Shown here piece after piece: positions 49,249 through 53,204 of a stretch of 64,000 nt of DNA (position 1 is its first letter; each line of letters begins with the position of its first letter). The DNA comes from Longimicrobiales bacterium (lineage in GTDB: Bacteria; Gemmatimonadota; Gemmatimonadetes; Longimicrobiales; Gaopeijiaceae), in contig CBDFMQ010000001.1 in NCBI GenBank assembly GCA_965249725.1, positions 288,001-352,000 of the forward strand. Reading direction: 5' to 3'. The translations under genes and the position numbers were made by a program. A model generated the notes under the pieces. It did no database searches and had not been told where the DNA came from. It worked only from the letters and a program-made list of their open reading frames with translations.

Positions 49249-50430
49249 ATGCGCGCCGATCCAGCGATTGACTTTCTTGCCGATGTGTTGGCGGGTCGCA
49301 CACCCTTGGAGCTTGGACCGGCGGGGGCCGATCGGGATCGTACGGTCGAGCTGCTGGGCTTTCACCGACTGATGGGGCTCTGGTACTCGGAGGTGCGCGC
49401 GGCGGGGACCGACCCGGCGGCGGGCCTGGAGCCGGAGCTGGCCGAGAGCCTGAGAGACCAGTACCTGCGGACCGGGTTTCACTCCACTCTGGTCGTCGAG
49501 TCTGCTGAGCGTGCGCGGATGGCCCTTCAGGCTTCCGGGATTCCCTCCATCGCGTTCAAGGGTGTCGCTCTGCTCCAGAACGGGACGTACAAAGAGCCGG
49601 CCCGCCGGAGCCTGGACGACGCGGACCTTCTGGTCCCTGAGGACTCGGCGGGCGCTGCGGTGAAGGCACTTCAGTCCGTGGGCTTCGACCCCTGGGTGGA
49701 ATGGGATGAATCCCGTGTCGGGTGGCTGCCGGCCTTCACCTTTGCGGACACGCGGGCCCCGGAGGGCATGCCGGTCTCTCTCGACCTCCATTGGCGTACG
49801 CCCTACGCGTCGTTTCGAAGCGGATCGGACGTAGACCCACAGGTGTTGTGGGAGGGGGCGGACGTCGAGGCGGGGCTGCCGGCCGAAGAGCCGCACTTCC
49901 TGCTCCTGATCGAGCATTTTCTGAAGCACCTACGGGTGGTGACCCATGCGAGAGCGATCGGGGACATGGTTCGGTCGCTGGACCGAGTTGCCAGGCCCGA
50001 ACTCCTGGTCACCCTCGCGGATCGGCGGGGGAGCCTTCGCGGTCTGCGGGTAATGCTAGCCTTTCTGAGGGACGACCTGGAGGTCCCGGTGCCGGACCCC
50101 ATACTTTCGGGTGTCGGCGTGCCGGGGCGGATGCCGCGCGCCTCCTCCAGGTTCCTGAATCGGGCGCGCCTCTTCGGCACCGAGCCGGCTGTCACGGGCG
50201 GCCGAGTCCGAGGGCTGCGCGCACAGTGGGCGCTCGGCGGATCGCCGTTCTCGATACTGCGCGACGCCTTCGAAGTCGTCCTGCCCCCGAGGTCCTGGCT
50301 GGACCACCGCTATCCGGACGTCGCGGCCGGATGGAGCCGTCGACGTCTGCGTCACTTCAAGGCGGTGGGGGCGTGGCTGATCGGGCAGGGTGTGTCCCCG
50401 CTGTCTCCGAATCAGGAGTTCGAGGAGTGA
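49249..50430 (+). CDS. Nucleotidyltransferase family protein (NTP_transf_5-like)
   Basis: GIPSIAFKGVAL...Y.EPARRSLDDADLLV, LDLHWR. Confidence 0.82.
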   Translation: MRADPAIDFLADVLAGRTPLELGPAGADRDRTVELLGFHRLMGLWYSEVRAAGTDPAAGLEPELAESLRDQYLRTGFHSTLVVESAERARMALQASGIPSIAFKGVALLQNGTYKEPARRSLDDADLLVPEDSAGAAVKALQSVGFDPWVEWDESRVGWLPAFTFADTRAPEGMPVSLDLHWRTPYASFRSGSDVDPQVLWEGADVEAGLPAEEPHFLLLIEHFLKHLRVVTHARAIGDMVRSLDRVARPELLVTLADRRGSLRGLRVMLAFLRDDLEVPVPDPILSGVGVPGRMPRASSRFLNRARLFGTEPAVTGGRVRGLRAQWALGGSPFSILRDAFEVVLPPRSWLDHRYPDVAAGWSRRRLRHFKAVGAWLIGQGVSPLSPNQEFEE

Positions 50431-51314
50431 GGGTCCGGTTCTCGTTCGAGGGTGCGATGACCGAAGTGCTGGTAGAGGCGACGACGCTCGCTCCCCAGGT
50501 CTCGGCGCTGTTTCCGGGAGGCCGGATCGAGGAGGCCGATGGGACTGAGGCGGAAGAGGGTGCAGCGGAAGGGGGTGTAGCCCCCGGCATGCGTGTCCTG
50601 CCCGAATCGGACGGGTTCGCTCTTCACGTGCAGGACGCGCGAGAGACGTTCGATTCCGTTCCCGACCTGCTGGCGGCGATCGAGTTCGCCGTAGTGAACG
50701 ACCTTCTCGCTCAAGATGTGGGGAGCACCCACCTGCATGCGGCAGGTGCGATGACCGAACGGGGCGCCGTGTTGGTCTCGGGTCCCTCGGGCGCCGGCAA
50801 GTCCAGCATGGCGTTGGCGTGGTCCTTGGCGGGACATCGACTCCTGGGCGACGATGTCGTACGCCTCGATGAGAACGGCTTGTTGGGACCCTTTCCCAAG
50901 CTGCTCAAGGTGGACCCGCTCCTGTTGCCGGAGCATGGGCTCGCCCCGGAGGATACTCCTGCTTGGGATCCCGAGGCCGACGAGGCGTGGTTCGACCCGA
51001 CGACTGCCGGCGGTTGGGCAAACAAGGGGAGTCGCGCGGCCGTCTTGGCCCGGATAGAGTATGGTGACTTGGAGAGGACGCAGATCCGAGAAGAAGAGGC
51101 GGGCGTAGGCCTTCGCATTCTCTTGGATTCGGTGCAGGCGACGGGCTTACGGAGAGAGGAGAGCATGGACCGCTTTATCGCCCTGTTGGAGGGTGTTCGG
51201 GTGTTCGATGTGCGTTACGCGTCGTCCCGAGATGCGGCCCGTGCGATCGCCGAGCTGGCCGAGGAGGCCGGAGAGTCGCCGACTCGGGTGTCGGAGACTC
51301 GGGTCGAGTCGTGA
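50427..51314 (+). CDS. HPr kinase-related P-loop kinase
   Basis: HLHAAG, Walker A GPSGAGKSS, LLGDDVVRL; GTGA overlap with the upstream gene. Confidence 0.82.
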   Translation: MRVRFSFEGAMTEVLVEATTLAPQVSALFPGGRIEEADGTEAEEGAAEGGVAPGMRVLPESDGFALHVQDARETFDSVPDLLAAIEFAVVNDLLAQDVGSTHLHAAGAMTERGAVLVSGPSGAGKSSMALAWSLAGHRLLGDDVVRLDENGLLGPFPKLLKVDPLLLPEHGLAPEDTPAWDPEADEAWFDPTTAGGWANKGSRAAVLARIEYGDLERTQIREEEAGVGLRILLDSVQATGLRREESMDRFIALLEGVRVFDVRYASSRDAARAIAELAEEAGESPTRVSETRVES

Positions 51315-51601
51315 CCGGCTCCGGCATGCCCGCGAACGCGGGCCACCCGAGGGTGAGGGACGACGCGGTCTTTCGGTCTCTCGGAACGGAGTGGGTGGTG
51401 TATGATCCCCGCACGCAGCTGCTGCACGTGCTGAACACCACGGCGGCTCTCGTCTGGTCGTCCTGTGACGGCTCTCGGTCACCCGAGGACATCGCACGTG
51501 AGTTGACCGAGGTCCTGTCCGAGGCTCCTTCCGGGGATCTCGTCCTCGAAGAGGTGCGCGAGACGATCGACGGATTCCGAGGCCAGGGACTGCTCGAGTG
51601 A
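51311..51601 (+). CDS. PqqD-family RiPP recognition element (peptide chaperone)
   Basis: EWVVYDPRTQLLHVLNTTAALVWSSCDGSRSPEDIARELT...FRGQGLLE; GTGA overlap. Confidence 0.88.
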   Translation: MTGSGMPANAGHPRVRDDAVFRSLGTEWVVYDPRTQLLHVLNTTAALVWSSCDGSRSPEDIARELTEVLSEAPSGDLVLEEVRETIDGFRGQGLLE

Positions 51602-52590
51602 GCACCCCCTATTACGCGAGCCTGCTGAGTTACTCGAACCGCATCGACCTCTTTCGGCGCGCGATCGAGGAGGCCGTGAGACCCGGCGACCGAGTGCTTG
51701 ATGTCGGAACGGGCCTGGGGACGTTCGGCTTCTTCGCGGCGCAGTCGGGGGCCGAGCGTGTGGTGGCCGTCGACTCGAGCCCGGTAGTCCACCTCGCGGA
51801 GACTCTGGCTTCGGCGAACGGGCTGGCTGACCGGATTGAGTTCGTTCGGGGCTCCCTTCCGGGTGCGCCCATCCAGGGGGAGTTCGACGTCATCATCTTC
51901 GAGGACTTCCCGACGCCGTTCCTCGACCACTCCACATTCGGTCTGCTCAAGACTCTGCAGGAGGAACATCTCGCGCCCGGTGGCAGGGTGCTTCCCCGAT
52001 CGGCTCGCATGTGCCTGGCGCCGGTGCAGTCACATTCCGTATGGAACGAGACGTTTCCCTTGGACGCACAAGGGCACGAGCGCTGGGATCTGGATTGGAC
52101 CGGCATCCGGCCCTTCCTGGCCAATACGCCCCGGCAGCTCAGCCTGAGGCCTGAGGACATACAGGGAGAAGTGGTATTTGGACCCTCCTTGCCGCTGCAG
52201 CCGGTGCCCACGGCTCCGGAGCTTCGGGTAGAGGGGAGCTGGGATGGCGGGGAGCCTGGAGTTGTCCACGGGCTGGCACTGTGGTTCGACCTCGAGATAC
52301 ACGCAGGTGGGTGGATCTCCAACGGCCCGCGGCCGGATACGGAGCCCTGGGGGCAGTGGTTCCTGCCCGTCGACCGGCCGCTCGAGGTAGGTGCGGGACA
52401 AACGCTGCAGGCCTCCGTTTGGCGGGAGGCCTTGGAGCACGGGGCCCCCGGGTGGACGGGGTGGGAGTGCCGGGTCGAGGGTGAGGTGAGGAAGGGCCAT
52501 GAGTTCGCGGGGATGGTCGTTGGCGTCCAGGACTTGACGGACCCAGTGACGGACCCAGTGACGGAACGTGGTAGCGGAGACACCCCGTAG
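51598..52590 (+). CDS. SAM-dependent methyltransferase with protein-arginine-methyltransferase (PRMT)-like two-domain layout
   Basis: VLDVGTGLG, FAAQSGAERVVAVD, FDVIIFE, LAPGGRVLP, VHGLALWFD, SNGP...EPWGQ; GTGA overlap. Confidence 0.8.
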   Translation: MSTPYYASLLSYSNRIDLFRRAIEEAVRPGDRVLDVGTGLGTFGFFAAQSGAERVVAVDSSPVVHLAETLASANGLADRIEFVRGSLPGAPIQGEFDVIIFEDFPTPFLDHSTFGLLKTLQEEHLAPGGRVLPRSARMCLAPVQSHSVWNETFPLDAQGHERWDLDWTGIRPFLANTPRQLSLRPEDIQGEVVFGPSLPLQPVPTAPELRVEGSWDGGEPGVVHGLALWFDLEIHAGGWISNGPRPDTEPWGQWFLPVDRPLEVGAGQTLQASVWREALEHGAPGWTGWECRVEGEVRKGHEFAGMVVGVQDLTDPVTDPVTERGSGDTP

Positions 52591-52723
52591 CTCCGCGGAC
52601 CGTCCTTTGGCGATGCCCCCAAGGTTGACATCCACTCCAGAGTCGGCCGACCTTTGAGAATGGCGCCTGTCCCTAGAAGAGGGGGGCGCCAAACAGTTCT
52701 TGATCCCGTGGGGGAGAGAGTCA

Positions 52724-52936
52724 TTGGACGACCGACGTAGGTTCCTACTCAAGGTGGCGGCGGGTGTCACGTATGCCACGCCGGTGATCCGCACGATGGC
52801 CGCCCCACCCGCGCTCACGGCCCAGGTCACCGGAAAGATGATGATGGGCATGGGCATGGGCATGCTTATCATCGCGCCGCCGCCACCCTCTCCTACGACG
52901 AGTACTGCCCCCTGGGCGAAGAGGCCCCCGGGTTAG
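52724..52936 (+). CDS. Putative precursor/substrate peptide (70 aa)
   Basis: GGGGAG RBS plus TTG; MDDRRRFLLKVAAGVTYATPVIRTMAAPPALTAQVTGKMMMGMGMGMLIIAPPPPSPTTSTAPWAKRPPG; TTGACA upstream at 52625. Confidence 0.7.
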   Translation: MDDRRRFLLKVAAGVTYATPVIRTMAAPPALTAQVTGKMMMGMGMGMLIIAPPPPSPTTSTAPWAKRPPG

Positions 52937-53052: not shown

Positions 53053-53081
53053 TTGACACCCCCCTAAGCCTCTTTTAACTT
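53053..53081 (+). promoter_or_regulatory. Sigma70-like promoter of the str operon
   Basis: TTGACA-17 bp-TAACTT. Confidence 0.7.
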
Positions 53082-53204
53082 TCCAAGTCTTTCCCGGAGA
53101 TGCGCCGACGCGTCGGTGACTCCGGCTCCTAAACCGCGCTAAAACCCGCGCCAGGAAGGCGCGCAATGAAGCGCGTTTTTTTGACGACATGAACCTGGGC
53201 TGAC

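Follow-up and report, generated by a model that had tools for sequence, protein, structure and literature searches.

A candidate peptide substrate with a twin-arginine-type, probably RRE-binding leader in a kinase and methyltransferase cassette of a Longimicrobiales bacterium

In the LPP system (lppAKBSDN) of Paenibacillus alginolyticus, the peptide is phosphorylated on core Ser3, and LppK rejects a Ser3Thr substitution (PMC13381572). In LppB, the RRE of this system, D70 forms a hydrogen bond with the Tyr of the leader, and the kink at Pro is held in place by N33 (PMC13381572). YxxP is an RRE motif that is shared broadly (PMC12710340). In the pseudomycoidin pathway, PsmN is needed for the hexose on the peptide phosphate (PMC6993621). 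LPP clusters sit in polysaccharide-type regions.

In the current study, a comparable set of genes was characterized in a 64 000 nt stretch of DNA from a Longimicrobiales bacterium, referred to below as the window. The last ORF of the set encodes its conserved, substrate-like peptide, with a leader that is likely both the handle for the RRE and a Tat/signal-peptidase export signal; we assign this reading a probability of about 0.55.

The precursor gene and its cassette

The cassette lies between rpoC and rpsL. Its genes, like all features given here by window coordinates, are on the forward strand. They encode an NTP_transf_5 nucleotidyltransferase (49249–50430; PF14907, E 1e-20) with an intact DxD motif (D124, D126), an HprK-like kinase (50457–51314, with a possible GTG start at 50427) in which the His, Walker A and DD elements are intact, a PqqD/RRE adaptor (51311–51601), which is the sole PF05402 match in the genome and has LppB as its nearest solved structure, and a SAM methyltransferase (51598–52590) with a full PRMT/CARM1 fold and an altered active site. 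The precursor gene comes last (52724–52936; 70 aa). An earlier note on this DNA had read DRRRFLLK, YATPVI, a possible signal peptidase site LTA-Q and a core with six Met in nine residues (MMMGMGMGM) from this ORF, and translation bears out all four.

The precursor has a TTG start at 52724, and GTG occupies the equivalent place in two same-genus orthologues. The ribosome-binding site proposed in the note is present as a GGAG-type site, GGGGGAG, 7 nt upstream of the TTG. The TTGACA that the note had placed upstream is also present (52625–52630); it resembles a −35 hexamer, and GTTGACAT is preserved at this position in all three aligned genomes. The predicted promoter is only half shown, since no good −10 follows the hexamer, which is absent from the output of a consensus promoter scan. 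A separate promoter-like site, TTGACA-17-TAACTT, lies upstream of rpsL (53054–53082) and is kept in same-genus genomes.

Judged by its relatives, the precursor ORF is real and conserved. Clear relatives are present in kin genomes, and a profile built from 15 leaders finds matches in 19 of 401 phylum genomes, which fall in four families including that of the source genome, and in 38 of the 314 genomes of the source family. It also matches 159 protein clusters at 50% identity. The core varies, and a precursor with a conserved leader and variable core, as anticipated by the note, is supported. Conservation is at the protein level, with length changes in frame, across five families of the phylum. 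The frame is intact in close relatives, as the note's proposal demanded, except for a 1 nt shift in one same-genus assembly (L026), the leader of which is also borne by five intact database proteins (P0003–P0007). Predicted cores of merely 1–7 residues, mostly Ser/Gly, were seen in P0101, P0118, P0136, P0138 and P0142.

The combination of motifs in the precursor is beyond chance, because although 94 predicted ORFs of the source genome carry RRx[FL][LIVM] within their first 60 residues, [YFW]xxP occurs at the leader register in two of them, the precursor and its paralogue, and in none of 42 Tat-like signals of this genome. Domain and family profile scans gave no match above cut-off for the precursor peptide. 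An ESM Atlas search gave a low recognition score, with all leads below 0.9 and one of them a PF10518 cluster, and the fold model is of low confidence (pLDDT 60, pTM 0.24). No name past 'hypothetical protein' was found for 10 member clusters looked up, and the family is not described in the parts of PMC7470986, PMC10036551 and PMC11316326 drawn on here. It is apparently uncharacterized.

Sixty-one loci with a leader match were compared; this count includes L078, which, like L034, is a false match to an ordinary signal peptide. The kinase was found in 47 loci, kinase and RRE together in 43, the methyltransferase in 36 and the NTP transferase in 24. No cassette gene accompanies the leader in 11 loci, of which five lie less than 1 kb from a contig end and one is a false match. 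The leader is present in 38 of the 314 family genomes and a close RRE (E<=1e-18) in 40; the two coincide in 34, compared with about five by chance. These are kin genomes, so the co-occurrences are not independent. The leader occurs without a close RRE in four genomes, and a close RRE without the leader in six. All five genomes checked for orphan or partial loci hold a family RRE somewhere. A hidden, divergent precursor had been predicted beside the RRE in the six RRE-only genomes; this failed in all six, with neither a precursor nor a kinase found near the RRE (one contig is only 3.5 kb).

Three layouts recur: that of the window, one with an A-I-[VI]-T-S-G-M motif and the kinase immediately upstream, and one of FxxP type with kinase, RRE and an SdpB-like HTTM protein. 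The FxxP sub-family (L076, L094, L096–L099, L101 and L035) has an RRE without the Tyr-binding Asp, the SdpB-like HTTM protein and a small membrane protein, and several of its cores share an [IL]SPT-A motif. A rule by which leaders end in A-Q where the methyltransferase is present and in A-I where it is absent was ruled out by L079 and L080, which combine A-I/A-V with a methyltransferase. At L104:7006-8662, an RR…YxxP peptide adjoins a tubulin-tyrosine-ligase-family protein fused to PqqD.

The source genome has a single cassette of this kind and a single PqqD. A second precursor stands alone on another contig (G000:C3:1748330-1748587; L022:10331-10588, reverse strand) and is 64% identical to the first. 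A TTGAC-like hexamer of its own lies upstream of this paralogue, which adjoins a GMC oxidoreductase gene; a second genome, G001 (L024), has the same orphan. The one cassette of the source genome would serve both precursors, the stand-alone one in trans. A polysaccharide-type region with two asparagine synthetase genes lies approximately 22–43 kb downstream of the cassette (G000:C2:363000-384000).

Probable RRE docking and proposed export through the leader

The conserved leader (residues 1–33; 52724–52822) comprises RRxFL, YxxP-x-I-x-T, a further Pro and L-x-A. In the 113 best-scoring homologues, the conserved columns are R (111), R (110), F (101), L (99), Y (103), P (113), T/S (110) and P (106), frequencies that are partly circular as the homologues were chosen with a profile of this same leader. 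The note had asked whether RRxF and YxxP are kept in homologous loci, and they are: the RR of the twin-arginine motif R4-R5-x-F7-L8 (52733–52747) is present in 143 of 148 homologues, with F at +3 in 132, and the Pro of the predicted RRE-binding motif Y17-x-x-P20-V-I (52772–52789) in all 113.

Compared with solved structures, the RRE profile is closest to LppB (9x8z, E 1.5e-5), followed by TfuB1. D70 of LppB aligns with E81 of the window RRE. Where the leader has Tyr, this position is D/E in 31 of 33 loci; where it has Phe or Trp, D/E occurs in none of nine. Three further RRE rows are gapped here. In the kinase tree, eight of the nine Phe/Trp-leader loci form one well-supported branch, with L091 apart; this brings the number of independent events to about two, so that a Fisher p of 1e-7 overstates the covariation. 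N42 of the window RRE is kept in 44 of 45 RREs. Docking of the RRE on Y17xxP20 is well supported by this homology and covariation, which agree with the note's view of YxxP as the RRE handle. As a first step, the RRE would very probably bind this motif in the cytoplasm, and by analogy with Tat proofreading chaperones the bound leader may be held back from export.

A segment related to the leader, RR…LxxP-VI…A-A-Q, is fused in frame behind the RRE in three loci (L120:6035-7700, L122:5800-6036 and L123:5988-6248), two of which (L120 and L123) adjoin a kinase and an NTP transferase. The cores of the L120 and L122 fusions are Cys-rich, and in L120 three tandem copies lie between the kinase and the NTP transferase.

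Several features make Tat export of the peptide plausible. An S/T/D-R-R-x-F-L motif stands near the N-terminus, and the leader ends in an A-x-A-type site of the signal peptidase I pattern, L-T-A|Q (52814–52825), at which cleavage is predicted; A/G occupies −1 in 109 of the 113 homologues, L/A/V −3 in 111 and Q +1 in 85. The hydrophobicity of the family leaders (1.48±0.33) is similar to that of the 42 native Tat-like signals (1.58±0.29). The source genome encodes TatC and two signal peptidases; an archaeal-type signal peptidase (TIGR02228) was not found in this 96%-complete assembly. The note had held that a dedicated protease and transporter are missing, and no conserved peptidase or exporter was found among the 95 flanking proteins of related loci that were scanned, of 155 listed. 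One ABC exporter, beside L062, was seen among the 37 loci with flanks listed.

Distant homologues carry other passengers behind the leader. One of these, L107 (E 3e-4), has a PEP-CTERM tail above cut-off, with PqqD and glycosyltransferases adjacent; another has a DUF11 passenger beside a glycosyltransferase similar to that of L107, and a third has IPTL-CTERM below threshold. In the L107 region (L107:10001-15614, Bryobacterales), the RR…FxxP leader and PEP-CTERM protein are followed by several glycosyltransferases, the first SunS-like with TPR, and PqqD.

Alternatively, the peptide may be bound by the RRE, modified and kept in the cytoplasm, with RRxFLxxLAK, despite its likeness to a Tat signal, serving as an amphipathic docking helix for the kinase or methyltransferase. 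This appears unlikely, although several observations fit it or speak against Tat export. K/R occurs at +9, within the h-region, in 86 of 113 leaders and in one of 42 native signals; the window peptide has Ala there. An uncharged run of at least 13 residues is found in 112 of 148 homologues compared with 38 of 42 native signals, and the run in the window is 12 residues. TIGR01409 is passed above cut-off by 10 of 141 homologues (of 150 listed), with 25 matching at E<=0.1, and the window peptide matches neither TIGR01409 nor PF10518. In the RRE fusions the RR motif is internal, approximately 100 residues from the N-terminus, and residues 2–25 of the window peptide are predicted, with low confidence, to be helical. 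A cytoplasmic role leaves unexplained the near-invariant RR and F, the strictly small residues at −1 and −3 with Q at +1, and the PEP-CTERM and DUF11 passengers. Export is thus somewhat favoured: Tat translocation and cleavage by signal peptidase I would yield a 37-residue, disordered periplasmic peptide.

Core peptide and tailoring enzymes

The core was analysed in 104 homologues, after removal of short cores and one frameshifted read. What the family conserves in these cores is a Ser/Thr-x-Lys motif near the start; the Ser/Thr tail is not the conserved feature. Ser falls within core positions +2 to +9 in 91 of 104 cores, compared with 53±5 in shuffles, and [ST]x[KHR] is found in 62, compared with 11.5. 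The Pro/Ser/Thr tail, which the note had matched to the kinase, is not supported as its target; the conserved hydroxyl lies instead at +3 to +6, matching Ser3 of LPP (PMC13381572). In the window, the motif is T36-G-K38 (52829–52837), and by analogy with LPP the HprK-like kinase would probably phosphorylate Thr36 at core +3. Thr at this position is a caveat, because LppK did not accept Ser3Thr. The NTP transferase could then cap the phosphate, probably with a sugar or a nucleotide, a possible step modelled on PsmN. The Pro-rich tail contains a conserved A-P-W motif (52907–52915), and [AP]PW is present in 75 of 104 cores.

The Met/Gly tract (52838–52864) derives from (ATGGGC)n of variable copy number: two runs from other studies (X4 and X5) have an in-frame gain of 12 nt, or two units, and P0002–P0007 differ in repeat number. 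The note had offered metal binding or methylation as the role of this tract. If the product served mainly to buffer Cu(I)/Ag(I) in the periplasm, with the tract as ligand, it would resemble the bufferins, which are exported copper-binding RiPPs (PMC11626156). Met makes up 6.4% of core residues and at least three are present in 52 of 104 cores; Met, His and Cys together number at least three in 71, and some relatives have His-rich cores instead. Against this, 38 cores have one Met or none, many cores are rich in Gly/Lys, (MG)2+ is confined to 15 of the 104 and no metal-handling neighbour is conserved among the 95 flanking proteins. Copper binding is not the defining role of the family, because the tract is a slipping 6 bp repeat that varies within the species and so many cores have at most one Met; as the chief function of the product it is distinctly unlikely, although a copper site in the window's own member is possible. 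The repeat variation and the Met-poor cores likewise make the tract a weak candidate for the methyl target.

The methyltransferase model is confident (pLDDT 88) and has the Rossmann and β-barrel domains of the PRMT fold (Foldseek TM 0.71; Z 28.5, rmsd 3.6, 299 aligned). In the double-E loop the first Glu (E102) and an invariant extra D103 are kept and the second Glu is absent, while the THW loop has lost its His and kept its Trp. In precursors from methyltransferase loci, counted by eye, the position two beyond the Ser/Thr is occupied by K/H in 22 of 37, by Met in six and by none of these in nine. The best guess for the acceptor is Lys38, with the leader Arg or Met as alternatives, and we tentatively suggest that the enzyme methylates the residue two after the Ser/Thr. 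A resemblance to the proteusin amide methyltransferase AerE was considered; AerE is absent among the methyltransferase matches listed.

If the enzyme were instead a true PRMT acting on the leader arginines, methylation could gate Tat export. The full PRMT fold would suit this, and the RR pair is the sole basic element common to all precursors, two cores (L072 and L074) being free of K, R and H. This is nevertheless very unlikely: the double-E loop keeps its first Glu only, the THW His is gone, and the same leader occurs in loci and genomes that lack the methyltransferase.

Several further features of the methyltransferases were seen. P0054 (446 aa) is a methyltransferase fused at its C-terminus to a full precursor, possibly through an assembly error or frameshift. 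About half of the methyltransferases end in a helical extension with a weak score against a PqqD (alignment A3, columns 330–400; for example, L067, L060 and L064); the window enzyme has no such extension. In the window, a direct repeat with a GTGACGGACCCA-like unit (52548–52571) encodes DPVT-DPVT at the methyltransferase C-terminus.

That the ORF is a chance or non-coding frame with no tie to the cassette can be set aside, as the TTG start, the lack of a family match and the low ESM Atlas score that would suit it stand against protein-level conservation in five families, length changes in frame and a fixed linkage to the cassette.

Comparison with described systems

The preferred reading, a leader that serves both RRE and export, may belong to a wider, modular pathway, which we put forward with reserve. 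The RRE motif would lie inside a twin-arginine signal, the RRE would act as a Tat proofreading chaperone, interchangeable enzymes would decorate the residues that immediately follow the signal, and export and trimming of the product would fall to the housekeeping Tat and signal peptidase. Enzyme sets in such a pathway would be the kinase with nucleotidyltransferase and PRMT-fold methyltransferase, the kinase with the SdpB-like HTTM pair, and glycosyltransferases; passengers would range from short peptides to PEP-CTERM surface proteins. The window would add a PRMT-fold enzyme with a non-arginine target.

The locus contributes three things: the covariation between Tyr and Asp, a PRMT-fold branch, and a lesser standing for the Met tract. 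For one kind of orphan RRE/kinase/nucleotidyltransferase cassette it identifies the likely substrate, which four genes and a 70-residue peptide would make testable in E. coli; it also offers a candidate substrate for a widespread, uncharacterized bacterial PRMT-fold enzyme. If export is true, RiPP leader recognition would be joined to Tat proofreading, which would explain RiPP-like clusters without a protease and transporter; the leader may also provide a portable tag for modify-then-secrete engineering.

A lasso peptide was considered and rejected, as the locus has no macrolactam cyclase or B2 protease and the core contains no Asp or Glu, at positions 7–9 or elsewhere. The one PF13471 match in the genome is an unrelated 509-aa protein, and two strong PF00733 matches begin MCGI like ordinary AsnB and lie in the polysaccharide region. 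Pseudomycoidin (PsmK/PsmN; PMC6993621) is similar in that an HprK kinase and an NTP transferase act on a peptide Ser behind a YxxP leader; it differs in that the locus lacks the cyclase, the B2 protease and a ring Asp/Glu, and its predicted site is near the core N-terminus. The best NCBIfam matches of the kinase and RRE are TIGR04352 and TIGR04353 of the HPr-rel-A cassette, but these score 35.9 against a cut-off of 200 bits and 24.8 against 35 bits, respectively. A literature search found no paper on TIGR04352, TIGR04353, HPr-rel-A, HprK-related kinase or TIGR04355.

Bufferins (PMC11626156, PMC12452194) are likewise RiPP precursors that use housekeeping export, and an RRE-type partner has been proposed to mask their signal peptide. 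Unlike the putative route here, theirs is Sec, not Tat, with MNIO chemistry on Cys; the cassette has no MNIO, and the window peptide has no Cys. On overexpression, bufferins can be modified without their signal, whereas in the window peptide the RRE motif is embedded in the signal itself. With the Tat proofreading chaperones (NapD/NapA, TorD; PMC3712460, PMC4159696) the locus would share a small cytoplasmic chaperone that holds an epitope inside a twin-arginine signal until maturation. Those chaperones serve cofactor loading of folded redox enzymes, whereas the predicted system has an RRE and tailoring enzymes acting on a short, disordered peptide. A Tat-type RRE leader is nowhere described in the open-access main texts searched; these RREs may be listed in the data files that accompany PMC13381572, PMC12710340 and PMC7470986.

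The closest known system is LPP (PMC13381572). Both have a free-standing RRE, along with an HprK-like kinase and an NTP transferase, a leader motif of the form YxxP-x-V (YxxPx[VIL]), and a Ser/Thr shortly after the start of a linear core that varies, and the spacing from Tyr to hydroxyl is about equal (18 versus 19 residues). The locus differs in having neither the dedicated SipW-like/archaeal-type peptidase (LppS) nor the MsbA-like ABC exporter; its leader end departs from LxHQxIxFET, and Thr, not Ser, is at core +3. The locus works like LPP but fails two of its defining features. In place of the missing parts it has a twin-arginine motif and an A-x-A|Q site, along with a PRMT-fold methyltransferase and an APW tail.
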